A DNA stretch of 64,000 nucleotides, taken from the NCBI GenBank assembly GCA_010093815.1, contig ML996574.1. One strand, written 5' to 3'. The stretch is from Pseudovirgaria hyperparasitica (lineage: Eukaryota). The notes under the pieces are model-generated. The model searched no databases. It saw only the letters and a program-made list of their open reading frames with translations, and had not been told where the DNA came from. Shown here piece after piece: positions 1 through 22,630 of this stretch. Position 1 is the stretch's first letter, and each line of letters starts with the position of its first letter. The translations under genes and the position numbers were made by a program.

Positions 1-2369
1 GAATATAGTACTAAGTTTCCGCTTAATTCCTAGCGTATAGTAGAAATCCTTCTAAAATTTAGATGTTATCTATAGACCTCTATCCGAAACTATACCGTTT
101 AGTATACTATAGAGCCGGACTACGTCACGGAGTAGTATATCTATAAGATCCGGTACTTAGATCGTCTTCCTTATAGGGATATAGTATAATATCTTTATAA
201 ATCTATCTAGAACTATAAGTAAACTATTATAAATATATCTAGAATACTTACTTAGGGGTAGATCTATAATAAAATCTATTAATAATTCCTTCTATACCTC
301 CTTTAGTATAGGTAATGGCCTTAATTCGCTATATAGTAAGTATCTATATACTTTCGTATACTAGTAAACGTTATACGTTTTTACGTAGTCTTTTATATAT
401 TTATAAAGACCCGGCTAGTCGTATATCCTTTAGATTAAATTAACTATTCTTATAACGCTAAAGTGCTCTACTAACGCGTAATCATGCTATTCCCTTAAAA
501 TATTAATTTATAAGCCGTCTTCCGGCACGTAGAGTCGGCCTTAGAAGTAGATCGCGTCCGATTATCGTTTCTACCTTAATAACTATGGTAGATCTATAGC
601 GCTTCCTTTCATGCTTATGACTTTCTTTACTAATATATTAGAATTCTAGGTAGATTTAATTAAGTCTTTAAGGGTTTTCTTAGTTTCTTAGATATTTATT
701 TAGATTACTTAATACCCGCTCTAATTCCCACGGAGAATCGCCGAAAGTATCCTAGCTTCTAGTATTCTATTAGATAACTAGTCTTATAGTATCTAAAGTA
801 TAGTATAGTCTAACTTATACCGACTATCTACGTTATTCTATAATAATTTCTTATAATCTTTACGCCGCGATAGAGGATTAGCTTTATTCTCTCTTCTAGC
901 TTTATATAAGATTTTAAAGTTAAATATTAATATCTACTTANNNNNNNNNNATTTCTTATAATCTTTACGCCGCGATAGAGGATTAGCTTTATTCTCTCTT
1001 CTAGCTTTATATAAGATTTTAAAGTTAAATATTAATATCTACTTAGCCTAACATACTTATCGGCGATTAAGGACCTTAGTTAATATAAAGTAATGTAGAT
1101 TTACGTAATCCGATAATAATTCGATCTAATATATAGAGCCTTCTAAATAATATCGCTATTACTTAAAACTCTTAATAATTATAAGTAGTTCCTAGTCATG
1201 CGTATTATAACGCGTCTCTATATCTACCATTTTATAGAAAAAGAAAGCGACCGGGTACTATTATACCTTATCTTTCGTATCTTTATACGGTTAACTAATA
1301 ATTCTAGTAATTACGAATCCTAACGCGTTAGTTTTAACCCGAATATACTTCTTAGGATTAAAATACCTAAGAATCGGCGTAGTTATAAAGTAATTCTTTA
1401 ATAATTAGAACGTATCTCGCGCTTCCGGCGTTAACTATATCTCGACCGACTTAGCTTTACGCTATACTCGCCTATCTATAGGGATTTTACCGCTATTCTC
1501 TATAAGTTTATTAAGCGGCGCTATAATTTATAAGAAGCCTATAATGAATTTACGATAATAGTTTACGAAACCTATAAATATTCTAATTTAATATATAGTA
1601 GTAGATTCTAGCTATTCTATAATAGTCTTTATACACTCCGGCTCTATTTTTAGGCCGCTATATATTATAATAAAGCCGAGAAACCTAACTTCTTATTAGT
1701 AAAACTCGTATTTAGATAATTTTACGTAGAGTTTATACTACCTTAGATAATTTAGTACCGATTTCACGTGTTCTTTATAATTCTATATACTATTAGAGTA
1801 AATTAGTATATTATCGAGATAAACTACGTAAATCACGTTAAGTAATCCTACGAGTGTAGTATTAATATATCCTTAGAACGCTCCTAGTGTATTTATTAGC
1901 CCGAATAGTATAATAGTATACTTAAAATAACTATATCTAGTCCGAAATGCGGTTTTCTACTTATCTCTATAATGAATTTAAAGCCGGTAATATATATCTC
2001 GTAAATCTAGCTTCGTAAAGTACTTTACCTTTATTAATTAGTCTAAAGATTTACTAACTAGCGGTAATAGATAACGATTCTTCTTAGTTACCGTATTTAG
2101 TACCCGATAGTCGACGTATAGATATAAACTTCTATCTTTCTTCTTTATAAAGAGAATAGATACGCCGGCCGATAACGTACTATAACGTATCTAGCCTCTT
2201 TCGAGGTATTCTTTAATATATTTATAAAGAACTTTAAGTTCTAGTCTTAAAAGTAGATAAAGTAGGCTATAAGGGACGTCTACTCCCTCTTCGAGCTCGA
2301 TCTTTAGCTTATATAGCCCGTGATTAGGGAGAAGTAACGCATCTTCTACCGAAAACACATCCGTATACT
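1..2369 (-). mobile_element. Ty3/Gypsy family A, copy 1 (RT-RNaseH-integrase part), interrupted at 2369 by family B
   Basis: Colinear with 12498-~14761. The minus strand near 1801-1833 reads IYVVYLDNILI (RIP'd YLDD). An integrase ELLIDF motif near 270-290 reads ELSMDF in copy 2. Confidence 0.9.
941..950. other. Assembly gap (10 N) with a 95-bp overlap duplicated across it
   Basis: 846-940 is repeated exactly at 951-1045. The homologous segment in copy 2 (near 13340-13440) is single. Confidence 0.9.
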
Positions 2370-2609
2370 TGTAAGGATTATAGACGTAGGATAGTAGTCT
2401 AACAGGTCATAGGAGGATTCGGGAATATATTTAAAAGGGTAGTCTACTCTCTTAACGAGGTTGATTCCTAAAGAGTAGGAATTAAGTATGTACGGCCTAC
2501 TTATATAGTAGTCTTGCTTATTCTAGCTGGCTTACCCTAGGTCCACCTATCACGGACTATACTAGACTATAGTATTCTAGTTAAGTCTATTCTAGTATTA
2601 GCCCTAATA
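2370..2609 (-). repeat. 3' LTR of family B
   Basis: Begins TGTAAG exactly where homology of A copy 1 to copy 2 stops, ends ...CCCTAATA (RIP'd CA end), and is adjoined by a minus-strand polypurine tract AAAAAGAAGAAGGATAT (2610-2626). No partner LTR in the window. Confidence 0.7.
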
Positions 2610-3177
2610 ATATCCTTCTTCTTTTTATGCTTCGCCCCGAAGTACTTAGCTATATATAAATCCGTAATTCCATAAGTATTATGTTTATACGCGTATCTAA
2701 TTAAATCCATATAACGTTATCGATAGTCTTTATATTAGTGAACTTAAGCTCTAGTTTACTTTTATTTATACACGCGCTTATCCCTTACTTTATAGCTACT
2801 ACCTTAGAGATAGCTCCGTGGGTTATATAACCGCTATATTAACTAAGCTTATATTTAGTTCTCTTATTCTAAATTTTCTTCTCTAGTATATCTACCTTAC
2901 TCTTAAGGTAAGTCGTTAATTCGTATACTATCTCCTTTAGTTTAGATCCGTTCGGGTCTAGAGTGGTCTATTTTTATTAGAGCTAGTCCTATATAATCTA
3001 TTCGCGTTATTACGGTTACTAATTTAGCTTCTTTAATCGCCTTTAAGGCTAAACGAGTATTCTACTCTTAGATCTCTAGCTAACGTGTGTATATAGATAT
3101 CTAATACTAGTCCTATTTCTAAGCCTGCCTCCTCCTCTCGCAAGACTTACTCTAAAGGGATTATCTCTACCCTAGCT

Positions 3178-4407
3178 ATACCGGCTAAAAAATCCACTTA
3201 TTATAGTAGTATAAAGGCGCGCTCTAAGTTAGAGAAGAAGGTAGCTAAGGCTACTACTACTATTATTATTACTACTAACGTGGCTACTAGTCGCTCTAAT
3301 CTAGGTAATTCTAGTACTAGTGTTACGGAAGAGATAGCTATAGAGCCTATCTATATCTACTCGCGCTATCTATCTACTCTATCTCCTTTAGAGGATAAAG
3401 AAGATCTTATTATAGACGATAATTAAGAGTTTACGCCTTTACTACCTCGCTCTAAATACTATTCCTCTTTTCGGTCTAATATAGACCGACTTAGTCGCTC
3501 TAGGTCCTTTTAGGACCTTAATATTCGCTCTAAACCTAGCCCTAGTAATAATAAGGTCTAGGTCGCCGAAGATACTAAACGTAGTCACGGTTTACGCTAT
3601 AGGAAAATGGTAAACTACGGTTTAATATACTTTAAGTATATTAAGGCTTACGCTACCGGCTCTAAATATCTCTTCCGCTCTAACTCTAGTATTAGCTACT
3701 ACTCTACTAACCGCGATGGGTCTATACGCCTAATCTTTAAGCTCTCTACCCGCTACCGCTACTATACCGTCCTTAGTAAAGTTTATCTTTAGATAAGTCT
3801 ATTAGACTATTTTAGTCTAGGGTAATCTAAAGTTATCTATACTAATATATTTTTAGGTTTCTATTTATATATAAGATATATATAATGATCTTCGCGTCCG
3901 CGAGACTCTCGGCGGTTCTAGTAGTTATCTAGCTTCTATATATAGAGAGTTTAGGGAGCGCTATAAGCTCTTTCTAGAGGTTATTAAAGTATAAGTTTAG
4001 AAACCGTTAATTATTATTAATCTTAGCTTATAATTTTTAGTTACTACGAGATTCCTAGTACTTAGGCTACCTATTCTAGGGAGTTGGTTTTAGCTACTAA
4101 GGCTATAGAAGAGATTTATACTATTTCTTTCTATCTACCTTATACTACTAACGGGTCTTATAAGAGATCTACTAGTTCTCCTTCTAAGTTACCTCGTAAG
4201 AGGGTATATATTCTATTCTAGATTATTCTAGACTACGTTAGCTAACTTTAGGTCTAGTCGCTCCGCTCTAGCGCTTAGTCGTTATCTTACTAGGCTCTAA
4301 CCAAGCGTGTAGTTACTCTAGAGGATAAGGTCTCTAACCTCTATTACTCTATTACTTAGTTAGTTCGTTTACTACGCTCTAAGAGTAATAATAAGATAGA
4401 GGAGTAG
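3178..4407 (+). pseudogene. RIP'd three-exon antisense accessory gene of family B (Cys-cluster plus C-terminal coiled coil)
   Basis: One frame 3178-3792 (ATA CCG GCT AAA, probably MPAK) has only three internal stops, all RIP-compatible TAA/TAG. Intron-like segments 3793-3856 (ATAAGT..ACTAAT..TTAG) and 3991-4040 (ATAAGT..TTTAG) keep phase. The last exon reads LTKRVVTLEDKVSNL. Confidence 0.65.
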
Positions 4408-5225
4408 CTCTATAGCTCTATTTACTAGGGTTTCTATATAGTATATATTAGCTCTATCTACCTAGTTTCTATCCGTTTTAGTCCTTTTTAGACCGTTTAG
4501 ATATCTATCTACTAGTTTTTTAGTAATTTAATTCTTAACTTAATAATATTATATACGTTCTTATTTATTCTATAACTATTAAATTTTAGGTTCTAATTTC
4601 CTTTAAGTTACTTAAGTATAGGTATTATATATAAATTAGTTTATCTCTCTAAATTATATTAGAGTACCTAAACTAGTAGCCTAGTAGTTATTAGTTTAGG
4701 TACTCTAACCTTTTATATTATATATTATAAGTTTAATTCCGTAGTAGGGTACCTTTTTAGTTTCTTGGTCCCATGTTCTTCTCGTGTGTAATGGTCTATA
4801 TTAGTCTATTCTAGACTTCTCCATGTTATTCTATTGTAATATATCGTGTCGCGTGCCTATAACGGTTATTTACGTTTTCTTCGCGTTTAGTAACTATGCA
4901 TCGCTTAAATTATAGGGCTACCTTATAGAGTTTTCCTAGTATGCGTTTAGGATTCGTGATTCGATACTTCGTTCTCTATAGTATCCTTCTTCTTTTTATA
5001 ACGGCCCCGACGGCGCTAGGTTTACGGTAGTAACGTGTTATTCTATAACCTCTATTTATATATAGCTATCGCGGTACTTAAGATATATACCGTAGGTTCC
5101 TAGGTGTCCTTATCCTTGGTAGAGTTCTTCTAACGGATTTAATACTTTTAGACACCGTTCTCGTCAAGCCTATGTTCAATAATATAGTCTACTTCGTATA
5201 CGTCTAGTCTATCTTAGGGTATAAT

Positions 5226-5796
5226 TGTAAAAAGGGCAGGTATAAATAGATATATAATATTCCTTATATAAGGAATATATATCTAAATAGAGTTATATAA
5301 TAGGATCTAGCCATAATAGACTATTATATAATAAACGGATCGGCGGAGTATAGCTTAAAGATAATAAGAATATAGTATAATTCTTAAAGTAAAGACTAGA
5401 TAGAGAGAGAACTAAATACATAGAGAGACCGTTTCTTATATATTCCTCCTTATACATTCTAGATCCTTCTCTTAATTAATAATAGGAATCTTCTAGACCT
5501 CTAGACGTACGTATATATTCTATAGCTCTAGTAGTTTCCTTAGAATAGAATAGAGTAGAGTAGAACTCTATAGAACTTATAGACTCTATAGTAGAATCTA
5601 ATAGAACTCTATAGAAGTTCGTGTTTCTAAAGACCTCTAGAAGTTTCTAGAGGGTTCTAGAAACTTCTATAAGGGTATAGAGTATTTATATATATAAGTA
5701 GATAATATTAGTAATATTAATTACTAATATTAAGCTATTCCTAATAAGGAAGTACCTTATATAAACTTATTAGATATAGTAGAGGTTAAGTTTACA
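5226..5796. mobile_element. Solo LTR of a third family, inserted in the family B integrase
   Basis: TGTAAA...TTTACA termini flanked by the 5-bp TSD ATAAT (5221-5225 and 5797-5801). Removing it plus one TSD copy rejoins the integrase C-terminus to the chromodomain in frame. Confidence 0.88.
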
Positions 5797-8700
5797 ATAA
5801 TAGAGTGTAATTGCACGTTCGTGTGTTTGTATACGTTAGGTCGAAACCTTTTAAGTAATAAGACGTGGAATATATTATGACTTTTATATTATTTTCTAGG
5901 TCGAGCTCGTAGGCTCTTATACTAATGCGACGTTTAATTCGGAAGGGACCAGCCATTTTATAATCGAGCTTTTTATTTACTCACGATGTTTATATATTAC
6001 GGATATTAAGTAGGACTTTATCTCCCTCCTCGTACGCTTAATCTTTAACTAATCTATTATAGTACTTTATATATAACTCATTCGCTTACTAGATTATTAC
6101 GCGACAGTTACGTGCAGTTTTAAAGATTTTAATTGCTAGTTTCTACGCGTGGACGTTAACATCTATCGTTCGGTCGAACTAGACCGTGTAAGGTTCGAAA
6201 CCTATCCTTAGACTACGTCCTAGGTTCGCCTAGAAGGGCGTAACACCTATTATACTATAACGACTATTATTATACGCGAATTCTACTATACTTAGTAGAG
6301 AGGCCTAGTTATCTTATTCGAAATTATAGAATGCACGAAGGTAGGCCTCGAGCGTTTAGTTCTATCGCTCTATCTAACCATCTATTTATAGATGGAATGC
6401 TATTAACATATTTCTATTTATACCGGCCATTTCGTAGAATAACGTCTAGAATTTAGACGTGAATATACTCCCTCGGTCCGTAACGATCCTTTTTAGTATA
6501 CCATAGACCTTAATAATCTTATTCTAGAATACTTATACTAGTTCTTTTAATATAATCATCTTCTACATAGGGACGTACCTAGATATCTTTATAAGTCTAT
6601 CCACGATAATAAGAATTAAATTATAACTTATTCTAAGTATCTCGCTTAGAGGTAAGTTAACTATAAAATCTATAGTAATATCTTTCTATATAAAGAGGGG
6701 GACTAGTAGAGGCTGTAAGTTCCTATATGGCTTATGCCTAGGTGCCTTTATTCTTTAATAAATTAGATAAGTAGCTATCTATTCTTTAACGTACTTAGGT
6801 ATATCTTTCTAAAAATAGTACTAATAAATCGAGCTTAGGGTGCGTATATACCTAAAATATTCTACTAGGTTAGCGTTATGGTATCGGCTAACTATAGTAA
6901 ATTGTGCGTTACCCGTTAGTATATAGTACTTTCTATTATAGTAGAGTAAGCCGTCTACGAAGGTCTACTTATAGTCTACTTCGGTCCGTAATAACCTATC
7001 TTACTATATTTTATATAACTTTAAAACTATTAGGTCTATCTTTTATAGATCCACGATTAACTAGGCGAGGTCTACTTAATATACACGCCGGGTACTATCG
7101 CCCTCCCTAATAGCGCCGATAAATGGCTTACTAGGGACTTTAGTACTATGTCTTTAGTTACCGGCTTCGGTCTTATAAATTCGATTACTAGTATCGGCGT
7201 TAGCATCTCGCTAATCGTCGGATAACTTATTATCTAACCTCGTCCTTAAGAGTTAGGCCTATAGCTACTCTAGGACCCTATGGCCACTATAATCCTAGGT
7301 GCCTTCTTCATAGTTAGGTCTTCTTAATATTCTATTAGCTAGGTTTATACTTCTAGGTTAATGGTAGATTATAAAGTAGAAATTTATAAGCTACTTAGCC
7401 TATCGAACCTATCGATGATTTAAAACCGTCGTGCTTATAAACCCCTTTAAGTTATAGTAATTAGTTAGTAACTTAACGTTATACATAGTACCTTTAAGAT
7501 AATATCGCTACTACTTAAACGACTCTACTATTACTAGTAGCTCTTAGTTATAAATAGTATATCTAGTCTCGACGTCGGCTATCTTACGCGAGAAGAACGT
7601 AACTAGATACTATTAGACCTTTTTAGACTCTATTAGTCTAGACTAGGAGAGTATACCCGAGATTATAAATCCTAATATATTAGTTTTAACGCGAATAGGT
7701 TTGGTTAGATTAAAGTGCACTAGTAATAGGGCGGTTATAAATGCTTCTTTAATCTTCTTAAAGGATGTTCTTTCGACCTTAGTTAATTTAATAGATTATA
7801 ATTTAATATTACGCTATTTCTATCTACCACGGACCATAATAGACGAGTTAGTAGTAGTAGTACGCGTATTAAGTGGTGCGGCTAAACGGGAGAAGTATTT
7901 AATAAATTTTCGGTAGTAGTTGGCAAAGCTAATGAAGACACGTATATCTCGAACGGATTTTAGTTTAGGCTAGTCTATAATAGTAGTAACTCTATCTCTC
8001 TCTATGGTTATACCTTAATTAGTAATAACGAAGCTAAGAAAGTTAATATGGTCCTAATGGAACTCGTATTTAGATAGCTTAATGTATAGCTTATACTTTT
8101 CTAGCCTATCTAGGACTATACGTACGTACTAGATATACTCATCCTCATTATCTAAGAAGATAAGAATATTATCTAGGTATACGATATATATCGTGTCAAG
8201 TAGACCTACTAGCGCGTTATTAATATACGCTTAGAAGGTGCCTAGCGCGTTAGTTAGTCTAAAAGGGACTACGGTATACTTAAAGTATCTATAACGGGTC
8301 CTAAAAGCCGTTTTCTATTCGTCGCCTTCCTTAATACGAAGGCGATAGTAGGCGTTACGTAGATCGAGCTTAGTAAAGATCTTTACATATCCTAGTCTAT
8401 TAATAGACTCGGAGATAAGAGGTAGTAGGTAACGATTCTTTCGTGTAATATTATTTAGGCTATAGTAGTTAATATATAGATGGAGGCTTCTATCCTTCTT
8501 CTTTATAAAGAGGATTAGAGCTCCGGCTAGGGATATACTAGGCCTAATCTATCCTTACGTAAGGTTCTTTTTAATGTATTCTCGAAGGGCTTATAACTTA
8601 GGTTCTAAAAGAGGGTAGATAGGTCTATATAGAGGTTACTAGCCGTCTTTAAGATTAATAGTAAGGTCGGTAGATTAGTATTAAGGTAGTTCGGAGGAAT

Positions 8701-9563
8701 CGATCGCTAACGTAATATGTTAGTATATTTTATACTAATGTAGTAGGTTTTTATCTACTTTAATACTAAGCTCGCTATTTTACGTAAGTAAGAGTACGTA
8801 GATAGTCGAGATCGCCTTCTTATAATCTTTCTAGAATTATTCGTCGTTAATAAGCTGTACTAGTTCCCATTAAGGTGGGTTTATACGCTAGCTAGCTATC
8901 TTCTTAAGGAAGTCTAGTTTTAGATTATATTTCTTAAGCTACGGTATACCTAGGATTATGTCGAAGGGACTATCTACCACGATAAAGGTTAAGTAGTAGA
9001 GTTTCTATTTCCCTCCGCTATCCTAGATGCCGTATTTAATAGTATAGATACCGTGTAACTTAATAGGACTATCGATACTATAGAATATAGTACCTATTAG
9101 AGCTTAGATATCGGCCTTAAGTTCTCGTGCTCGTTAGGTCGATATAACATTAGTAGCCAACCTACTATTAAGTATTATAGTCTAATATTATCCACGAGGG
9201 ACCTTAATAGGTCTAGCCTATAGTTCGATATACTATTTAGCGGATTACCCCTCTATTATAGTCGCGTCTATAAGTCGCGAGGGTTTCTCGTAGGCTATTA
9301 GTTTTTTATATTCTATGCTAGATAGTTAGGCGTGATATGTTCTAGCTACTAGTACTTATAGTATATAACTAGTTAGTTAGTTATATTAGCACTCGGTGGC
9401 TTCCCCAAACGGTACTTAGGTACTAGATAGTCTATTCTACTATAGGTGTAGTAAGTAACTTTAGGTCATTTATACGAGTCGGTCCTCGTATCTCGATGTA
9501 TTGATTGGTAGAGAGATCCACGATACGATCCGCGTGGTTTTAAATTTAAGGCGTGGTAGTAGC

Positions 9564-9791
9564 TGTAAGAATAGGGTTATTGGATAGTAGTATAGTTAGA
9601 TAGAATAATAGGGTGTATTCTATTATAGAACGAATTACTACTAAACCCTTTTAGTAGGAATCTAAGAGTATATATATAAAGGGACGCCGATCTATCTAGC
9701 ACGTAACTATTTACCGCCCTTTACGTTACCTCCTAACCCTATTAGCTAAGGTATATATAGGTCGGGTCCTACCTAAGGCTAAGTCCTAATA
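9564..9791 (-). repeat. 3' LTR of family A
   Basis: TGTAAGAATAGGG...GTCCTAATA; matches 16719-16946 (direct) and 18210-18437 (inverted); adjacent minus-strand PPT GAGGGAAGAGATAA. Confidence 0.92.
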
Positions 9792-10275
9792 ATTATCTCT
9801 TCCCTCTAGGAAGCTGCCCTTAGTAACCTAGATTATTATCTATCTCTATATCCCTATTCTAAGTCTCGTAAGACCTTAGTCGTTCTCTACGCTTCGTCTT
9901 AGATACTTACTAATATTTACTAATCTAAGATTTATATAAGCGTTTTCCTAATAAACTAGATTTTATCTATCTTAACTTCTTATATAGGTGAGATTACCTA
10001 ATTAGGCCTAGCGTATCACGTAATATAATTAGGTAAGCCCGGGTGCTACCTATATTAAAATCTTTTCTTAGAAATATTCCTTTCTTTAAAAAACTTCTTA
10101 ACTCTTTATAGAGTTTTTTAGATTATTAGATATATCACCCGATCCTTATAGATATAGATTTATATAGATTTACTATAATTTAGTACGATTTACGCAATTT
10201 ACTAATTTTTGTACCGTCCTTAGCTAGTAATAATATAATTCGTAATAATCCGTATAAATTAATAATAATCTTAAT

Positions 10276-11257
10276 ATGGTTTCCCGAAATCTTAACGCTC
10301 TAAAGTAATTAGTACGGAAACAGGCGCCTTCGAATAATCCCTATCTTATATATATTACCGACATGTCGAAAGCCATTAATCTACCCCGACCTAGGCCGGG
10401 CTCTAATAATCTAGCTATATATTATTATGGTTATTGCTTTCCGTCGTACATTACTCACGGTAGTACTAAATCTATAATATACGGTACTTATATAACTAAG
10501 AAGCGTTATTACTTATAGGTATTTAAGTAAGTTCGAAGAACTTTATATAGATTTACTTATATTAGTATAGATTACTACTAGGCCTCTAGTAACCCCTACT
10601 AATAAGGAGCGTAGTACTACTAATCGTAACGCCTTAGAGAAGGCTTTCTACGAGCTATATACCTAAGGTAAGGGTTACGCCTAGGAGTATAATTCTAATA
10701 AGATCTATAAGGATTTATCGGAATCTACTATAGCTATTATTACCGCGATTACTAGGTAATATTATTTTTCTTAAATCGTTATAGATTCTTACTAATATAT
10801 ATTAATCTCTATAATAGTACTAAAATCTCTACTACTTCGGACTTCTTTCTATACACTAGTAATATTAGAATTCCTAGAAAAGGTTCTAGTAAAAAGGCTA
10901 AGGTTCCTTCCTTACGCGTGCTAAAGAGCTATAAATTTAGGGAAGATAGCTCTAATCTAGAAGTTTCTATACTAAAGGTATGTGGTTCTATACCGATCGT
11001 TAAATCTTTTCGCTAATTTATATAATTCTTAGCGTGCCTACGCCGGTCCGTCCCTCTCTATCCCGGGTCCCGCCGCTCCATAGGTTTCTATAGAGGAGTT
11101 TATAGCTATAAGGCGCGCTATATAGAATTTATAGCGTCGGAACGAAAGGCTAGAGACTTATATTATAAAGCTCTATACTATACTAAATAAGAACTAGCGG
11201 AAGGAATTAGATATAACCATCGCGGTAATTAGTACTTCTACTCCTACTCCGACTTAA
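10276..11257 (+). pseudogene. RIP'd multi-exon antisense accessory gene of family A (Cys-cluster plus coiled coil); 5' end uncertain
   Basis: Frame 10276-10518 reads PYLIY...GYCFP...IYGTYITKKRYYL*, followed by GTATTT..TAG (10519-10570). A canonical intron at 10978-11032 (GTATGT..GCTAAT..TTAG) precedes a last exon reading EEFIAIRRAI*NL*RRNERLE. Confidence 0.62.
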
Positions 11258-14200
11258 TCGGTTTAGATCTATACTAATTAGTACTAATATATCTCTTTTA
11301 TCTAGCGTTTTTAGTTTTTCGGTTTTAATTTTAAAGCGATCTTACTTCTTCTAGATAGATTAGTACGAGTTTATATAGATCTATATAGATCTTTATATTT
11401 TCTTTTAGCTTTCTTAATTTTATCTTTCTTTAATAATAACTTCTTTAATCTCTTTAGTAATCTATACCGATCTATACTAATCGGCACCGATTTTCGATGT
11501 CTATTTCTCTTAGTAAATTATTTTTCTAAGTCTCTTTTTTAGTTAAATTTTTTAAAGTTCTAAGTTCGAACTTTCTAAGGAAGTTCCTTAATTCCTTAGA
11601 ATGTTTTAAAGATCTATATCTCTTTTACCTTCTTCCTTTTAGGCGGCTGTCCTCGGCGCTAAACTATACTAAAAAACGTTAAATCGCTGTACTTTAGTAT
11701 AATTCTCTGCGATTCCGCGGCTTCCTTTACTAATTGCTGCTTATATACTAATATTGCTACTTTACTAATGTTTATTATAGGTTTCTAAGTATCTTTATTA
11801 GGATTATATCCTTTCTAATAAATCTTATATAGCTATATACTATCTTTAGCGCGTTACTAGCTAAGTATCTACTTAACTTCGTAGATATCTATACCTTCTA
11901 CGTAACTACTTTATATAGTATCTATTCGGAATAATCTAGTAATAATAAGGCATGAAATAGCTCGAGAAGTATAATATGGAATATATTATATATCTTTAAC
12001 GTAGGAGGAAGTTATAACTCGTACGTCTGGTTATTAATTATATAAGTAATCTTATATAGACCTATTATTATATAGTTAAGCTTCTTCTTTGGCCTAATAC
12101 TATGAATATTCTTACTATTTAGTAAAACTTTATCCCTAATATTAAAGATTATAGGTTTTCTACCCTTATTATAGTGCGATTTACTATAATCCGTAGTATC
12201 TTATAGTAACTTTATAACGCTTCTTTACGTTTAGAATAGTTCTATAGTAATTTCTATTACTTTAACGTTAGGTCGTTCTACTTTAAACTAAGTCCCTAAG
12301 AACTATATATTATGGTTCTAACCGAAGTTTACTTTAAATAGACTTACGTCGGTTAACGCATGTCGGCTATTATTATACGCGAATTCCGCAATATAGACTA
12401 ACCTTACCTAGTTATTCTACTTATAGTTATAATATACGCGTAAATACGCCTCGACTATCTAGTTCTACCGCTCCGTCTATCTATCTATTTATAGATGGAA
12501 CGTAGTACTAAGTTTCTACTTAATTCCCAGCGTATAGTAGAAATCCTTCTAAAATTTAGATGTTATCTACGGACCTCTATCCGAAACTATACCATTTAGT
12601 ATACTATAGAGCCGAACTACGTCACGGAGTAGTATATCTATAAGATCCGGTACTTAGATTATCTTCCTTATAGGGATGTAGTATAATATCTTTATAAATC
12701 TATCTAGAACTATAAGTAAACTATTATAAATATACCTAGAATACTTACTTAGGGGCAGATCTATAATAAAATCCATGGATAATTCCTTCTATGCCTCCTT
12801 TAGCATAGGTAATAGCCTTAATTTACTATATAGTAAGTATCTATATACTTTCGTATACTGGTAAACGTTACACGTTTTTACGTAGTCTTTTATATATTTA
12901 TAAAGACCCGGCTAGTCGTACGTCCTTCGGATTAAATTAACCGTCCTTATAACGCTAAAGTACCCTACTAACGCGTAATTATACTATTTCCTTAAAATAT
13001 TAATTTATAAGCCGCCTTCTAGCACGTAGAGTCGGCCTTAGAAGTAGATCGCGTCTAATCGTCGTTTCTACCTTAATAACCACGGCGGATCTATAGCGCT
13101 TCCTTTTATACTTATGACTTTCTTTACTAATATATCGGAATTCTAGGTAGATTTAATTAAGTCTTTAAGGGTTTTCTTAGTTTCTTAGATATTTATTTAG
13201 ATTACTTAATACCCGCTCTAATTCCCGCGGAGAATCGCCGAAAGTATCCTAGCTTCTAGTATTCTATTAGATAACTAGTCTTATAGTATCTAAAGTATAG
13301 TATAGTCTAAATTACACCGACTATCTACATCATTCTATAACGATTTCTTATAATCTTTACGCCGCGATAGAGGATTAGCTTTATTCTCTCTTCTAGCTTT
13401 ATATAAGATTTTAAAGTTAAATATTAATATCTACTTAGCCTAACGTACTTATTAGTAATTAAGAACCTTAGTTAACATAAAGTAACGTAGATTTACGTAA
13501 TCTAATAATAATTCGATCTAATATACGGAGCCTTCTAAATAATATTACTATTACTTAAAACTCTTAATAATTATAAGTAGTTCCTAGTCATACGTATTAT
13601 AACGCGTCTCTATATCCGCCATTTTATAGGAAAAGAAGGCGACCGGGTACTATTATACCTTATCTTTCGTATCTTTATACGGTTAACTAATAATTCTAGT
13701 AATTACGAATTCTAACGCGTTAGTTTCGACCCGAATATACTTCTTAGGATCGAAATACCTAAGAATCGGCGTAGTTATAAAGTAATTCTTTAATAATCGG
13801 AACGCATCTTACGCTTCCGGCGTTAACTATATCTCGACCGACTTAGCTTTACGCTATACTCGCCCACCTATAGGGATTTTACCGCTATTCTCTATAAGTT
13901 TATTAAGCGGCGCCGTAATTTATAAGAAGCCTATAATGAATTTACGATAATAGTTTACGAAACCTATAAACGTTCTAATTTAACGTATAGTAGTAGGTTC
14001 TAGCTATTCTATAATAGTCTTTACACGCTCCGGCTCTATTTTTAGGCCGCTATATATTATAATAAAGCCGAGAAATCTAACTTCTTATTAGTGAAACTCG
14101 TATTTAGATAATTTTACGTAGAGTTTATACTACCTTAGATAATTTAGTACTAATTTCACGTATTCTTTATAATCCTATATACTATCGGAGTAAATTAGTA

Positions 14201-16718
14201 TATTATCGAGATAAACTACGTAAATCACGTTAAGTAATCCTACGAGTATAGTATTAATATATCCTTAGAACGCTCCTAGCGCATTTATTAGCCCGAATAG
14301 TATAATAGTATACTTAAAATAACTATATCTAGTCCGAAATGCGGTTTTCTACTTATCTCCGCGACGAATTCGAAGCTAGTAATATATATCTCGTAAATCT
14401 AGCTTCGTAAAGTACTTTACCTTTATTAATTAGTCTAAAGATTTATTAACTAGCGGTAATAGGTGATGATTCTTCTTAGTTACTATATTTAGTACCTGAT
14501 AGTCGACGCATAGACGTAAACTTCCGTCTTTCTTCTTTACGAAGAGAATAGATACGCCGGCCGATAATATACTATAACATATCTAGCCTCTTTTAAGGTA
14601 TTCTTTAATATATTTACGAAGAACTTCGAGTTCTAGTCTCGAAAGTGGGTAAAGTAGACTATAAGAGACGTCTACTCCCTCTTCGAGCTTAATCTTTAGC
14701 TTATACGGCCCGTAATTAGGGAGAAGTAACGCATCTCCTACCGAAAACATATCCGTATACTACGAATATATATCGGGTAGCGTGTCTTCGCCCCGATTAT
14801 TACTATCGTTCTCGTCTTTATTAATAATTAATAAGGATATAAGATAGATTAGCGACGATTAGGTCCGCACGGCGAGGTTCTATGCCTCCTTACTAATAGT
14901 TACGACTTACTAGTATAATTTACCACGGTATTATCGGAACGTTAATATCTTCTTCTAAAAATTAAGGATAGGGTTTAGGCGTCTAAGCTAAGGTATCCCT
15001 AGAATTATATTCTATTAGCTAATATTAGCCACGATAAATTTATTAGATATCTACTATTTTATTATCTTTAAGTCATGAACTCCGTAATTCGTTATAGCTT
15101 TACCTAAAGTTCTAACTTTATATCTATTAACTATAATAGTTTAGCTAACTTTACCGAGATCGTACGATAATCTATACTCCTTTATAAGAATCGACGAAAT
15201 ATAGTAATCTTCTATACTAGTGTCCACGAGGGCCTATATAGTTTTATTACTATTTACTATAGGTAACGATACTTTTAGTAATATTAGGTCTTTACTCGCC
15301 GGAAGGCGCTACGGCTCCTTCTAAGTATATATAATTTAGCTAAGAACGCGGTTAGGTCTCGTGTACTAGCCTATTCTTTTTTCGGATTCTTATAGTTAGG
15401 CGAAATATATTCTATTTCTCTATACTTATAGTAACGAAGTACGCTATAATCCTACTATTTTACGATAGGTGTTATATTTAAGTCTATACCTTATCCTTTT
15501 CTATGTTAAGAAGTACCGCCTTAATTATTTTAGTATCCTCTTAACGCGTTTCTACCTCGATTTACGCTTTTCTAGCGCTAATCGTAGTAAGGTTACTCTT
15601 AATCGAATGTATTCGATCGACCTTATTTCTAACCCGTATAGGGTTCGTCGGTTTTACCTAGAGAGCCGCGTTCCTTAAGGATGCGGTAGTGTTTATTAGC
15701 TTTCTCCTCTAATTTATGTAGATAGTTAAAACTTAATAATACTATTCCTAGTCTTTTGCGGATTAATAGAAGTAGTACTTCGTGAAACTAGAATATACGA
15801 ATATTTTTCTATAGCGTAGGGATATTATTCTATAGGTTTTAGAGGTATTATAGTAGTTAAGTAGGTGTCTAGTTCGGTCGTTATACCACGCTTCTTAACT
15901 TAGATAGTGCCTTTCTTTCACGTTCTCCATCCGTTCCGAGAGTGTTTAGTATAAATATAGCTAAATATTCCTAGGTTATCGTAGATAGTGGCTGTACTTC
16001 CTTCTATCTATCCTATTAATCGCGGGATTATAAGCCTAGGTATCGTTCTCCGAACGAAATACGTTATACTTTAGTAGAAAAGAGTAGAGGGTTATCGAGG
16101 AAGTACTTTTCGTAGTCTCTCTTCTAGTCTTTCTACTCCTTTTGGTTCTTCCCTATAAATATAGTCGGGTCTTTAGGTTTTAGTATATCTAGGGAAGGAG
16201 TAGAGTAAATCGGTAACGAAGCGGCTAGGTATACGGTGGATTATCGCAACTCTAATGGTAGGTAAACTAATTCTACCTGAATTAGTATAGAAAGTCGTCC
16301 ATCTACTATTATTCGGCGTAGTTCTTTAAGAGACTCCTTAAGTTCTCGTCTCTTTATGAGGAGTTTCGCGCGTTCTACCTATTCTTTAAGGGTTTAAATC
16401 TCTTGAGCCTAATTCGCGACGTATTTCTAAAGTTCGGTAATGGTTTATTATAATACCTTACGTGGCTCCGCCACGACTTATTATCCGGCTTTATATTATT
16501 AGAAGTTACTCGGTGTATCTACTATTTCTTCGTCTAAAAGCTCCGTGATTTAGTCTAATATTTCTACTTCTCGGTTAGAAATGGCTAGGATTAATACCGA
16601 TTATAGAGGATCCCTATTATTTAATATAGTGTTACTTATCCCTATAGTAGATCGTATCGACCTTCTCGGTTCTAGTTAGACTATCTTAACTATAGTACTA
16701 TATAGGGAGTAATTCGAA

Positions 16719-16946
16719 TATAAGAATAGGGTTATTAGATAGTAGTATAGTTAGATAGAATAATAGGGTGTATTCTATTATAGAACGAATTACTACCGAA
16801 CCCTTTTAGTAGAAATCCGAGAGTATATATATAAAGGGACGCCGATCTATCTAGTACGTGACTATTTACCGCCCTTCACATCACCTTCTAACCCTATTAG
16901 CTAAGGTACGTGTAGGTCGGGTCCTATCTAAGGCTAAGTCCTAATA
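16719..16946 (-). repeat. 5' LTR of family A
   Basis: 228-bp direct repeat of 9564-9791 containing a TATA-like run at ~16824-16835. Confidence 0.92.
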
Positions 16947-18437
16947 GAGACGGACCGGCGTGGGTACGCTAAGAATTATATAAATTAGGAAAAAGATTTA
17001 ACGATCGGTATAGAACTATATACCTTTAGTATAGAAACTTCTAGATTAGAGCTATCTTCCCTAAATTTATAGCTCTTTAGTACGCGCGAGGAAGGAACCT
17101 TAGCCTTTTTACTAGAACCTTTTCTAGGAATTTTAATATTACTAGTATATAGAAAGAAGTCTAAAGTAGTAGAGATTTTAGTACTATTATAGAGATTAAT
17201 ATATATTAATAAGAATCTATAATGATTTAAGAAAAATAATATTATCTAGTAATCGCGGTAATAATAGCTATAGTAGATTCTAATAAATCCTTATAGATCT
17301 TATTAGAATCGTACTTCTAGGCGTAACCCTTACCTTAGATATATAGCTTATAGAAAGCCTTCTCTAAGGCGTTATGATTAGTAGTACTACGCTCCTTATT
17401 AGTAGAGGTTACTAGAGGTCTAGTAGTAATCTATACTAATATAAGTAAATCTATATAAAGTTCTTTAAACTTACTTAAATATCTATAAGTAATAACGCTT
17501 CTTAGTTATATAAGTACCGTATATTATAGATTTAGTACTACTATAAGTAATATATAACGGAAAGTAATAACTATAATAATATATAGCTAGATTATTAGAG
17601 CCCGGCCTAGGTTAGAATAGATTAATAGCTTTTAATATATTAGTAATATATACGAGATAGGGATTATTTAAAGACGCCTATTTCCATACTAATTACTTTA
17701 GAGCGTTAAGATTTCGGGAAACTATATTATAATTATTATTAATTTATATAGATTATTACGAATTATATTATTACTAGCTAAGGACGGTATGAAAATTAGT
17801 AAATTATATAAATCATACTAAATTATAGTAAATCTATATAAATCTATATCTATAAGGATCGGGTAATATACCTAATAATCTAAAAAACTCTATAAAGAGT
17901 TAAGAAGTTTTTTAAAGAAAGGAATATTTCTAAGAAAAGATTTTAATATAGGTAGTACCCGGGCTTACCTAATTATATTATATAATACGCTAGGCCTAAT
18001 TAGGTAATCTTACCTATATAAGAAATTAAGATAGATAAAATCTAGTTTATTAGGAAAACACTTATATAAATCTTAGATTAGTAAATATTAGTAAGTATCT
18101 AAGACGAAGCGTAGAGAATAACTAAGGTCTTACGAGACTTAGAATAGAGATATAGGAATAGATAATAATCTAGGTTACTAAGGGTAGCTTCCTAGAGGGA
18201 AGGGATAATTATTAGGACTTAGTCTTAGGTAGAACCCGATCTATATATATCTTAGCTAATAGGGTTAGAAGGTAACGTAAAGGGCGGTAAATAGTTACGT
18301 ACTAGATAGATCGGCGTCCCTTTATATATATACTCTTAGATTCCTACTAAAAGGGTTTGGTAGTAATTTATTCTATAATAGAATACACCCTATTATTCTA
18401 TCTAACTATACTACTATCTAATAACCCTATTCTTACA
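16947..18437 (+). mobile_element. Family A, copy 3: 3' 1.5 kb in opposite orientation, with PPT and 3' LTR (18210-18437)
   Basis: Reverse complement of 9564-11054. PPT AGAGGGAAGGGATAA at 18194-18208; LTR ends TTCTTACA at 18437. Confidence 0.92.
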
Positions 18438-19237
18438 CTATCTTCTAGTAATATTAGTAGTAGTATAAGAGATAGTTAGCTAGTAAGGAGCCTATATAGA
18501 TATTAGTATTATCTATAATACCGCGAGTGGTATATTACAACTCTATTACCATGGATATTAATAGCTTTATCTCTTAGTACTCCGAATTACTAGAGAAAGA
18601 ATAGTATAAGGTTATTAAGGATAAGCTTATCTACTAGCGACGTAAACCTTCTATTAACTACGATAGTAAATAGGCTAACGCGCTAATTACCTTCTAGATA
18701 GCTTATTAGAATAACTATCCTTAGCTAAGTTAACTAGTAATTGACGTTCTAAGTATCCTAGCCTTAAGTTATAAGTATAAACGTGCCTTTAGCGAGGCTG
18801 GCGATATAATTACTACTCGTTAAGTAAAGCTTTATCCTATAATAGTTCGGCTAGTACTCTACTTAAAGTCGTAGATAGAAAAAGAACTTATTAACTTATA
18901 GCCTAAGTCGTAAGGCTAATAATATACTTTTCCGTTCTATATGGTAATCGACTTAACTTAGTAGAGGGTGATTCTATTAAAAAAGCTCGGATTTTAGCTA
19001 TTTCCTCGGTTTTTGACTTAAAGTCATCTATAAGTAACTATATTTAGATATACTTATCTCTTGGTTTCTCTATCTCCTTCCTAATTAGGTAATTATTATA
19101 TAAGCGAGTTAATCTAATATAAGTAATCTTAATCCCTTAGCGTAGATTCCAAGCTTAATCTATACTTTTGGGGTGACTAATCATATAATCCTAATCTAGT
19201 ACCTCGGATTGTATCCGATTGTATATGCTCACGTCTG
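18438..19237 (+). mobile_element. hAT DNA transposon 3' end (transposase dimerisation domain and putative right TIR)
   Basis: Plus strand ~18692-18892 reads F*IAY*NNYP*LS*LVIDVLSILALSYKYKRAFSEAGDII...LYLKS*, the RIP'd form of the hAT YP-x-L...LSIPA-S...ERxFS...LKSW motif. The end reads CAGACGTG... on the minus strand, with two subterminal GATTGTAT repeats. Confidence 0.82.
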
Positions 19238-19769
19238 CGTGTAGAGCGAGGATGATGTAGAGCCCCTGATCGCTAGCCCATCCCATGATTCTATCGAGGT
19301 ACTGGAGGCCCCCTCGAGGGAAGTATTCGTAATCGCGATCAACAATGTCTTCTAAAATCCAGTACCCCACAGATATGCGGATTGTATTCAGTCCATACTC
19401 AGCCATGGTCCTGATATCATCCTGAGTTATCCAAGTATCCCAGTGATGCTGGAATACAGTGTCGGCTTGGCTCTGGCCAAGCTTAGACACGCAGTCAAAC
19501 TCGGATTTGAGACCACGACAGCCCATGTTGTTGAACGTAGTCCGAGCCATCCATGGCTCAATGACAAACAGAGACCCCACGTTGACACCACGAATCTTTC
19601 CAGAGGGTGGAAGCCACTCGGCAGTGGAGTCTGAGCTGTGGCTGTCGTCGCCGCGCCGGACAAGTGAAGCATTGAAAGTGAAGACATCTCTGTCTTCGTT
19701 CTCAAGAGGCAACCATGCTGACGCGAGAGTAGTAAAGACAAGTAAAAGGCTAACTAGATGAGAAACCAT
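19238..19769 (-). pseudogene. Secreted GH5 glucanase (endo-1,6-beta-glucosidase-like), 5' part only, cut by the hAT insertion
   Basis: Signal peptide MVSHLVSLLLVFTTLASA; motifs KIRGVNVGSLFVIEPW, SEFDC and GLNTIRISVGYW. Homology stops at IILALH-G, and the catalytic NEP region is absent. Confidence 0.88.
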
Positions 19770-20599: not shown

Positions 20600-22630
20600 T
20601 TAAATCACCTCCATATTTTCATGACTGACGAACCATGTGTTGTTCCCAGTATCGACCGTCAAATTCGTCTGCGTTGTCTTTCCATACTTGATCGTTCCAC
20701 TTTCCACCACCCCATTTCCAACCGGTCGTTGCAGCCGATTGTCACCTGCGGCCACGGTGAAGTTGGCGATCGGGATTTCCCAGTTGTTTCGGGTGACCAC
20801 GGTTGGAAGACCGAAGTATCTAGCCTCAACCTGGGCATGCGTGAAGTGCAGCTCGTAGTAGCCACGGTAGTATAGGTCGTTCCATTGTAAAGAAGTGGTG
20901 TCTGATACTAGTGTGTTGGTGTAATTGTTTGCACGGTCGATCGTTATGTTTGCGCCATACGGACACGGACTGCTCACAGCGCTACCTGCAAACTCAACGC
21001 CAAGGGAGCCTGAACCGGTGACTGGATTGTAATCTGCGTGCTCTAGCCATGTCAAGTCACTGACCCAACTTGCATGGCTGTCACCAGCAAGGAAGATGTT
21101 GTTGCCGATGTTGTTGTCGTACAAGGTCGCCAAGGTACGGTTCTTATTCGATTGGTAGCCGTCCCAAGCGTCATAGTTTAGTGGACTGTCTTCACCAAAG
21201 ACCACGCTCTCGTTCAAGCGTGAGAAGACGATTTGACTACCAACAACGCGCCACGTTGCACCACGCTCGGCAGACGACGTGAGTTGATTGTAGAACCAGT
21301 GCTCCTGACGGCTTCCCATCAGTGAGCGGCTCGCGTCGTTGGAGATGGTATGGATATAGTCTGTGTTGAAGTACAGATCGGTGATGGAGCGGTCATACTG
21401 GCGTGTATCGAGCATGATCAGGTCGATCAAGTCACCGATAGCAAAAGAGCGCCAAATACGAAGGTTGTCATCCATGTCGACTTGGCGGATAGGCATCCAC
21501 TCAAAGTAGGCACGCACAGCATTCATCTTGCGTTGGTCAACGGATACGCCGCCGTCCATGACAAAAGACTGTTCGGTGTTGTTCAGCGTGGACGAGCCGT
21601 CGCGATATGTATTATCTGCAACTTCATGGTCGTCCCAAACAGGGATCCAAGCAAACTGTTGGTGGGACGCAAGCAGGTCGTGGTCTTCACGGTAGTTGGC
21701 AATACGGCGGCGATAGTCATGCAGGGTGTATAACTGGCGATCAGGCTGTGGGATGCGACCGATGGAGTAGCCATAGCCGTACTCGCCTGTGACTTGTAAG
21801 TAACGTGCTATGAAACCGGGCTATTCTGGCTTACCCTCAGCGTACTCATAGATATAGTCTCCAAGATGGACCACATAGTCAACAGAGTCCTTGCGGACAG
21901 GATTGCCGTAGGCATTGAAGAAGCCGAAAGCTGCTTCTTGTAAGTCATATGTCTCTCCTTCATGGCTCGCCTCACTTACGGAAGTTGGAGCAGGAATAGA
22001 TTGCCAGCTTTACGTCCGTGACGTGGTCGTCCTTGTTTGGTGTCGTCTTGGTGCGGCCGACCGGGCTGGTGACATTCGAATTGCAGACATTAAATTGGTA
22101 GTAGTACGTAGTAAAGGGCTGTAGATTCGACGCTTCGACCTGTTTCACTTGCATCAGCCCACTTGTACCCGTTATTCGGACATAGTGAATACCTTGACCG
22201 TAAAGTCAACGTCTGAGCTAGTATAAGCTTCCCCGTGGTCTGCAACGTCCTCGAAGCTCTTGTCGGTGGAAACCCTGTACTCAACGCATACAGGTGCTGT
22301 CGAGACCTTGACATATTTTTCCGTCTCGTGGCTGTATAGCGGAACATATCCGCTGACAGTGAGGTTGGAATGGTCGTTGTCTTGGACTGGCCCAACACGA
22401 GTCCAAAGGATCACTGAGTCCGGAAATGGGTCGCCGGACGCAACACCGTGAGTAAAGTTCAAGTGAGACGGGTTCCATGGCATAGTAGGGACATTGCGCT
22501 TGACAACCTTGTGAATAGCTATGCCCAGCCCTGGGTGATGCTCAGAAGGTGACCTGTAATTGAGGTTCTTGGTCCAACTCGCGCTCGCCAGAGCGGCAGA
22601 GGTAAGGACAGAGAGTGACTGAAGCTTCAT
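20600..22630 (-). CDS. phoD: Secreted PhoD-family alkaline phosphatase (4 exons)
   Basis: FTHGVASGDP, VILWTR, HLGDYIYE, WDDHEVADN, LDTRQY, DAWDGY and GDSH motifs. GT-AG introns near 22192-22140, 21979-21931 and 21834-21787. Confidence 0.93.

Follow-up and report, generated by a model that had tools for sequence, protein, structure and literature searches.

A probable coding relic antisense to gag-pol beside the 3′ long terminal repeat of a RIP-degraded chromovirus in Pseudovirgaria hyperparasitica

We analyzed a stretch of 64,000 nucleotides from contig ML996574.1 of the Pseudovirgaria hyperparasitica assembly GCA_010093815.1 (here called the window), whose AT-rich first 19 kb holds a minus-strand Ty3/gypsy chromovirus, element B. 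Within 2629-4983, i.e., in the interval that separates pol from the 3′ long terminal repeat (LTR) of this element, lies a plus-strand open frame that is probably, judging from its codon-level signals, the relic of a coding region antisense to gag-pol. With moderate confidence, we read 3097-3792, possibly extending to 4407, as an accessory protein-coding gene inactivated by repeat-induced point mutation (RIP), of the additional open reading frame (aORF) class that is represented by aORF-3R in plants and by brtn of Boty in fungi. Antisense open reading frames (ORFs) of this class have been described before, and a fungal chromovirus is among their carriers. What is new and most useful here concerns structure: a duplicated segment of pol tail and polypurine tract (PPT) is common to two diverged families and brackets the extra region in both.

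The frame itself is the following feature.

3097-3792, plus strand: antisense open-frame relic (candidate exon 1), 231 codons with 3 internal stops

Bounded by the stop at 3094 and by TAG 3790, it occupies one plus-strand register (codon start mod 3 = 1) and is interrupted by TAA 3424, TAG 3511, and TAG 3559. Counted from 3178 instead of 3097, it has 205 codons, which agrees with a first-pass annotation of the window that had described a plus-strand frame of about 205 codons with three internal stops. Over 3100-3790, the remaining frames hold 13 and 41 stops on the plus strand and 54, 11, and 20 on the minus strand. Across six frames of the 19-kb AT-rich block, this is the longest span with three stops, and none of 200 block-wise dinucleotide shuffles reached it (shuffled three-stop spans: mean, 149; standard deviation [SD], 15; maximum, 197). 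The stop-free part at 3097-3423 (109 codons) was reached in 17 of the 200 shuffles.

Codon-level statistics were then compared between the strands. TpA dinucleotides occupy codon phases 12, 23, and 31 of the plus frame 23, 22, and 75 times, respectively (chi-square of about 46); the corresponding counts for the sense frame of B pol are 30, 44, and 83. In 240-nt sliding windows, the phase bias (chi-square, 9 to 25) is restricted to ~3050-3789. TpA phase is blind to strand, and it is the ratio of Tyr codons to TAA/TAG (TAY:TAR) that distinguishes the strands. This ratio was 20:3 on the plus frame versus 11:11 on the codon-aligned minus frame. Three pol sense frames gave 39:15, 21:9, and 33:16, and their aligned antisense frames gave 35:35, 17:27, and 38:35. 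Taken together, the open span, the TpA phase, and the TAY:TAR asymmetry indicate that 3097-3792 is most likely a former plus-strand coding sequence, and the placement of the frame inside a chromovirus, antisense to gag-pol, stands as first annotated.

The frame lies in heavily mutated DNA. Positions 1-19000 of the window have a GC content of 26-37%, and the remainder is at ~50%. For the plus frame (696 nt), TpA/ApT is 2.28 and (CpA+TpG)/(ApC+GpT) is 0.11 (three CA and five TG dinucleotides), compared with 0.59 and 1.35 for a genic comparison stretch of the same window. The repeat DNA of the AT-rich block comes from a filamentous ascomycete and has been degraded by RIP, which is near saturated. 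In the translation of the frame (232 positions), Cys, Trp, and Gln are absent, and His and Met occur once each; such a composition is the effect of near-saturated RIP on TGY, TGG, CAR, and CAY codons. In its present state, the translation holds 39 Lys plus Arg, 16 Asp plus Glu, and 59 Ser plus Thr among the 232 positions.

Pfam domains were searched on all six frames read through stops (each stop given as X), and pol domains were confined to the minus strand. The elements of the block, with domains abbreviated as RT (reverse transcriptase) and RNase H (ribonuclease H), are as follows.

1-2369, minus strand: element A1, with RT, RNase H, and integrase zinc domain (Pfam)
5076-5198, minus strand: chromodomain of B (PF00385; E, 0.002; 18.4 bits, under the 25.1 cut-off)
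5873-8506, minus strand: pol of element B, with RT at 8506-8027 (RVT_1, 1.2e-18), RNase H at 7783-7380 (RT_RNaseH_2, 4e-15), and integrase SH3 domain at 6025-5873 (SH3_Tf2-1, 1.2e-08)
9564-16947, minus strand: element A2, a complete sister element serving as comparator, 7,384 bp, with 229-bp LTRs (the pair 93% alike) and Pfam pol domains
9793-11625: region of A2 between pol and the 3′ LTR (POL-3′LTR region), ~1.8 kb

Element B is a minus-strand Ty3/gypsy chromovirus: the order of its pol domains (RT, RNase H, integrase) is that of chromoviruses, and its chromodomain sits C-terminal of the integrase. The sub-cut-off score of this chromodomain is as expected for RIP-damaged sequence; the A2 chromodomain has a Pfam E value of 0.14, and the integrase core of B was not detected by Pfam. 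The pol sequences of B and A are 66% identical. The 5′ part of B is truncated at 9563 by A2, and hence B lacks an LTR pair and A2 has both LTRs. A1 is 93-94% identical to A2 (12498-14761), with a sharp end of homology at 2369/14761; upstream of the shared part, A2 runs on into protease and A1 does not, and a contig of another sample continues A2-like past 2369. A third partial copy, A3 (16946-18437), is inverted, comprises the region and an LTR, and adjoins the 5′ LTR of A2. Its position beside A2 produces a false look of terminal inverted repeats (16717-16947 versus 18439-18209).

The 3′ end of B is organized around two copies of one short segment.

2370-2610, minus strand: 3′ LTR of B, 241 bp, placed by the A1/A2 homology break at 2369/14761 and by its A2-like termini
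2613-2628, minus strand: second copy of the pol-tail 16-mer, with the PPT at 2613-2626, reading AAAAAGAAGAAGGA immediately ahead of the LTR
2629-4983: POL-3′LTR region of B, 2,355 bp, flanked on either side by a copy of the tail segment
4984-5016, minus strand: basic C-terminal pol tail RRRGRYKKKK, first copy of the duplicated segment

From 2370, the plus strand opens with TGTAAGGATTATAG, which resembles the A2 LTR edge TGTAAGAATAGGG, and at 2610 the minus strand reads TTATTAGGGC, which resembles TTATTAGGAC of A2. With the chromodomain at 5198-5076 and the LTR at 2370-2610, the distance of ~2.4 kb between them that had been annotated is confirmed. The 16-mer TCCTTCTTCTTTTTAT has exactly two exact matches, at 2613 and at 4984 (4984-4999, in the basic tail after the chromodomain), and allowing up to two mismatches gives 4 matches versus 0.13 expected. 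We aligned five such segments (the tail copies of B and A2 and the PPT-proximal copies of B, A2, and A3) and found a common core of ~45 nt, with the tail copies of A2 and B alike and the PPT-proximal copies alike. As tail copies pair with tail copies and PPT-proximal copies with PPT-proximal copies, the duplication is older than the split between A and B. Both families carry this old pol-end duplication, and enclosed by it is an extra region that measures 2,355 bp in B and ~1.8 kb in A2. The extra region of B therefore looks like an integral, ancient part of the lineage and not a one-off nested insertion.

Two further features were seen inside this region. On the minus strand, a stretch at 2640-2810, immediately upstream of the PPT-proximal tail copy, includes VH*YKDY and could be a second, decayed chromodomain or integrase motif; as a second chromodomain, 2800-2650 on the minus strand had no Pfam match, and tblastn to the integrase motif gave an E value of 0.39. 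If real, the motif would make the duplication longer than 45 nt. Downstream of the proposed gene, a hairpin of 20 pairs with a 6-nt loop occupies 4661-4706.

Copies of the region elsewhere were sought among short contigs of sequencing runs X1 and X2, which come from the same sample, placed on 2200-5300 at a likeness of at least 80%. X1 contributed 8,520 contigs and X2 contributed 3,192, covering 30 of 30 bins; contig depth is not taken as copy number. By likeness, the X1 contigs divide into 2,601 (99% and above), 2,419 (95-99%), 2,803 (90-95%), and 697 (below 90%), and as many as 50 separate contigs share one alternative letter at a given site. A contig of 175 nt, with 13 differences, spans the passage from the LTR and PPT into the region (2602-2776). 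Run X3, from another sample, and run X4 cover almost none of 2200-5300; a contig of X3 matches 4318-4471 with 5 differences. The extra region is thus present in many diverged copies within one sample.

The age and the flanks of the region bear on where it came from. Foreign sequence, either a fragment of a host gene or a relic of another transposable element (TE), may have been captured by or nested in an ancestor of B, so that the frame was once coding and then traveled as a passive passenger, an account that we consider possible though on the improbable side. The flanks of ~45 nt, duplicated from pol tail and PPT, are as expected for an insertion at the end of pol. The A and B regions are unalignable even when transitions are tolerated (scores of ~45, at noise level), the frame has no similarity to the pol or gag of its own lineage, and gene transduction is discussed as a possible source of antisense aORFs in passages of PMC7264820. 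Against capture, the duplication is common to A and B, so that the region is old and has been retained through a divergence that left pol 66% identical, and no host or TE homologue was found by protein searches, phmmer, or Pfam. Capture followed by later accessory use would be compatible with both accounts.

More specific identities for the frame were rejected. As pol or integrase of a related element, it should be hit by tblastn with the A2 and B pol frames, which placed nothing on it. As gag, it was searched with the gag-protease part of A2, which gave two short tblastn matches on the region (E values of 0.10 and 0.54), neither of them on the frame. A gag with a CCHC knuckle, which has the spacing C-x2-C-x4-H-x4-C, was likewise rejected: there was no Pfam gag or zf-CCHC match, and the spacing of the candidate Tyr codons is x2, x3, x5.

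Several results weigh against an accessory gene at 3097-3792. The frame has no ATG, and its sole Met codon, at 3607, reads ACG in 0.93 of the depth; ATA 3097 and ATA 3178 are possible former ATG starts. Its complexity is low, and an (ACT/ATT) run within it at 3251-3277, a 27-nt triplet run, is the POL-3′LTR region's only tandem array. Under a looser score (+1 per codon and −12 per stop), the frame is unexceptional block-wide (225 versus a shuffle mean of 191; SD, 47); when only the region was shuffled, none of 500 shuffles reached the observed value. A word-indexed search for homologous proteins scored 239 candidates, none of them at an E value of 0.01, and phmmer against 1.84 billion representatives returned 0 matches at an E value of 0.001. 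Pfam at an E value of 10 gave no match on candidate exons 1 to 3 or the aligned minus frame, and an Atlas search with 3562-3789 gave no usable match. RIP damage and low complexity make these homology negatives weak ones.

Three methods (blastn, a dot plot collapsed to purines and pyrimidines, and Smith-Waterman alignment tolerating transitions) found neither a second copy nor an LTR partner of 2370-5100 in the window. X1 and X2 represent one sample, which is possibly the source sample of the window, and hence they do not count as independent support. Between the A and B extra regions, the best match is one of 33 residues on the same antisense strand (13/33 identities; pairwise E value of 0.20). 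It falls in the sole weakly periodic part of the A2 region and is a lead, not homology. TpA periodicity in the A2 region is weak (maximum chi-square, 8.8), with no clearly matching frame. The plus strand of this region shows weak TpA periodicity at 10750-10989, within a 205-codon span (10711-11320) that contains 6 stops.

On a rival account, there was never a gene, and the openness of the frame comes from the base composition of the locality and from short periodic repeats, in DNA where RIP is near saturated. The Ser/Thr-rich, low-complexity translation with its trinucleotide run, the lack of both an ATG and a homologue, and the ordinary lenient score all fit this account, as do the chance-level intron and heptad features described below; moreover, RIP-degraded DNA here yields many moderately open frames on both strands. 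We nevertheless consider it unlikely, since no shuffle of either kind (200 for the three-stop span and 500 for the region score) matched the frame, the TpA phase bias extends over ~700 nt, well past the 27-nt repeat, and the TAY:TAR asymmetry between the strands is like that of real pol genes.

The reading as an accessory gene leaves its exon structure to be considered. Beyond TAG 3790, the following segments have been proposed to belong to a spliced gene.

3793-3856, plus strand: intron-like segment 1, 64 nt, ATAAGT...ACTAAT...TTTTAG
3857-3990, plus strand: candidate exon 2, 134 nt, 1 stop in 44 codons
3991-4040, plus strand: intron-like segment 2, 50 nt, ATAAGT...TTTTTAG
4041-4407, plus strand: candidate exon 3, 122 codons interrupted by 7 stops; a heptad run starts at 4297

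The two intron-like segments of the first-pass annotation do exist and do preserve phase (exon lengths, 615 + 134 + 367 = 1116). Their frequency, on the other hand, is that of chance: pairs of RTAAGT...TTTTAG at 45-90 nt apart occur twice on the plus strand of the 19 kb versus ~2 expected (29 donors and 30 acceptors), and both pairs lie in the proposed gene. The donors at 3793 and 3991 both read AT in the window copy. At donor 1, a G-to-A change would have occurred in GpG context, which is not the usual context of RIP; at donor 2, where T precedes, GT to AT would be a canonical RIP change. The strongest TpA phase moves 0, 1, 0 over the three candidate exons as predicted, with chi-square values that are not convincing (2.3-3.7 in exon 2 and 5.9-6.9 in exon 3).

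The heptad-like last exon fared similarly. The run at 4297 is present, with 8 a/d positions that are all Leu, Ile, Val, or Met; it is one of two such runs in the AT block, and the stop density of candidate exon 3 equals the background rate. Four Leu at 7-residue spacing occur 16 times in the AT block, including from 4297. Few basic residues precede the Leu heptads, and Pfam gave no bZIP family. A single exon ending at TAG 3790 is the simplest model, and the three-exon form is possible but weaker.

How far the former codons can be recovered depends on the variable sites, of which we read 40 of 217 in the X1/X2 comparison; none of these lies in the three stops, the two donors, or the seven Tyr codons that had been proposed as former Cys codons (3628, 3637, 3649, 3667, 3754, 3763, and 3784). 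The sites read touch 14 codons; 5 of the changes are synonymous, and in no case does a stop become a sense codon or a Tyr codon become Cys. Between X1 and the window, 187 of 194 differing places are transitions. At eight places among the sites read, a TA in the window is CG in other copies (2558, 2677, 3173, 3760, 4104, 4190, 4342, and 4697), with CG being a minority of X1 depth at 4190-4191 and the majority at the remaining places. This indicates that CpG-to-TpA double transitions are common in the element B family, and they bear on every attempt at reading RIP backwards.

The proposal to be weighed here is a three-exon antisense gene in which Tyr codons derive from Cys codons, giving a zinc cluster domain followed by a coiled coil. 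In its favor, exon lengths keep phase, the ATAAGT...TTTTAG segments are of fungal-like length, TpA phase shifts weakly as predicted, the run of 8 a/d positions follows from 4297, and TGY to TAY is a canonical RIP change. However, with RIP near saturated, the 20 Tyr codons are a mixture of codons that once read Tyr, His, or Cys and of Arg codons mutated twice, and their number (20/232) is about the sum of Tyr, His, and Cys in an average protein, so that no excess of Cys is required. Where older letters are visible, they point elsewhere: Tyr codon 3760 is TAC in the window and CGC in other copies (0.79 of X1 depth), and Tyr codon 4342 is TAT in the window and CGT in other copies (0.74 of X1 depth). 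Both of the two informative codons are thus Arg. Neither is among the seven candidates; codon 3760 lies within the YRYY motif, at an x position.

The spacing of the candidates is no closer to a known cluster. Zn2Cys6 proteins have the spacing C-x2-C-x6-C ... C-x2-C-x6-8-C, i.e., six Cys at set distances, and the frame offers C-x2-C and C-x2-C-x6-C pieces only if Tyr is read as Cys. Its first half is spaced x2, x3, x5, irregularly; Cys is found at 0 of 232 positions, and no zinc-finger or bZIP family matched in Pfam at an E value of 10. The 7 internal stops in the 122 codons of exon 3, the chance rate of the intron pairs and heptads, and the noncanonical change that donor 1 would seem to require add to this, and we regard the proposal as highly unlikely; the Zn-cluster-like Cys spacing that had been obtained by reversing RIP is unsupported. 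The evidence leans toward a basic, Arg-rich protein over a Cys cluster. More generally, where CpA and TpG are near saturation in RIP-degraded DNA, Tyr codons are not simply back-readable as Cys.

That the minus strand was the coding one, as a sense third ORF or an extension of pol, is most improbable: TpA phase does not separate codon-aligned strands, and minus frames at 3445-3798 (3 stops in 118 codons) and 3036-3350 (3 stops in 105 codons) are open to a degree, but the aligned minus frame has 11 stops versus 3, a TAY:TAR ratio typical of the antisense of real genes, and no Pfam match.

To our knowledge, antisense extra genes occur widely among plant LTR retrotransposons, none with a known function, and the one fungal case described is brtn of Boty. 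Passages of PMC7264820 report antisense aORFs located from pol to the 3′ LTR for the plant elements Grande, RIRE2, Retand, and PvRetro13, in line with the annotated remark that such ORFs occur in some plant Ty3/Gypsy lineages. With reference to Zhao et al. 2011 (Virology 417:248), they add the Boty elements found in Botrytis cinerea and in Sclerotinia sclerotiorum. The same remark held that there was no characterised fungal equivalent, which is wrong: brtn is given for BcGypsy1/Boty-like elements in parts of PMC8365987 and PMC4227169, and a CHROMO domain is listed for Boty gag-pol in the latter. The likeness to brtn is that both are additional to gag-pol and opposite to it in orientation, lie past pol on the side of the 3′ LTR, and belong to a fungal LTR retrotransposon with a pol chromodomain (as far as described in those parts of PMC7264820, PMC4227169, and PMC8365987). 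The differences are that the B copy has been killed by RIP, that it may or may not have been spliced, and that the frame is likened to brtn by position and orientation, not by sequence.

The plant aORF-3R genes (gene23 of maize Grande, rice RIRE2, Silene Retand with its TRP28 domain, and Phaseolus PvRetro13) share both position and orientation with the B frame in the accounts excerpted from PMC7264820 and PMC11963269. In these accounts, the plant ORFs, like the B frame, match no known protein family, and a regulatory or nuclear role is proposed for them. Retand POL-3′LTR regions measure 2.9-6.6 kb and always hold antisense ORFs, according to a portion of PMC11963269. Unlike Retand, the B frame has neither TRP28 nor any other Pfam match, and the plant lineages with aORF-3R are mostly nonchromoviral, whereas B is a chromovirus.

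Retroviruses have antisense genes that are transcribed from the 3′ LTR, such as HBZ of human T-cell leukemia virus type 1 (HTLV-1) and ASP of human immunodeficiency virus type 1 (HIV-1). The likeness to the B frame, antisense orientation beside a 3′ LTR, is an analogy only; a spliced message and a leucine-heptad C terminus would be shared only if the three-exon model were true, and the B frame differs in having no basic-region motif or bZIP Pfam match. In its strongest form, the comparison would make B one of a fungal chromovirus lineage with an intron-bearing antisense accessory gene beside the 3′ LTR, its product a basic protein with a leucine-heptad C terminus that regulates the element, a counterpart of the retroviral antisense regulators; the introns would have survived by virtue of their antisense orientation in the genomic RNA. 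We think this decidedly doubtful.

For the accessory gene in its simplest form, we can suggest how it may have worked while the family was active. It would have been transcribed on the plus strand, from left to right, from a promoter in or beside the 3′ LTR, placed there because the frame starts 486 bp from the LTR. The predicted product, of ~205-231 residues, would have been basic, Ser/Thr-rich, and probably disordered. By analogy, the protein or its antisense RNA may have modulated the element's own expression or transposition, a role that has been put forward for plant antisense aORFs and for retroviral antisense genes, the latter mentioned in general terms in passages of PMC7264820. In this genome, the gene is dead, with internal stops, no ATG, and near-saturated RIP.

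Other features of the window were noted in passing. Between the integrase SH3 domain and the chromodomain of B, ~600 bp intervene (5228-~5800), compared with an A2 equivalent of only ~72 bp. This insert holds short tandem repeats at 5541-5673 and palindromes at 5247-5285 and 5624-5653. The bin at 5216-5300 is much deeper than adjacent bins in all four runs (X1-X4), and an X3 contig links 4471 straight to 5228. The insert is probably a small, separate repeat resembling a miniature inverted-repeat transposable element (MITE), situated elsewhere in the B region in the other sample. Within A1, a run of 10 N at 941-950 separates exact 95-bp duplicates (846-940 = 951-1045), of which A2 has a single copy (13343-13437); the duplicate at 846-1045 looks like a scaffold-gap artifact from overlapping contig ends. 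At the edge of the AT block lies a hAT transposase dimerization domain (18695-18870, plus strand; E value of 7e-06). Beyond the block, where GC content rises, are a GH5 cellulase-like gene (~19220-19450, minus strand; E value of 5e-06) and a PhoD-like fragment (~20815-21001, minus strand; E value of 2.8e-04, sub-cut-off).

The dead gene described here serves as a pointer, and the place to study such a gene is an un-RIPped relative of the element in another species. If the reading as an accessory gene is true, B would represent a second fungal chromovirus lineage with a region of this kind, and the feature would not be an oddity of Botrytis. The architecture common to the A and B families, together with the old duplication at the end of pol, would then hint at how such regions are acquired.

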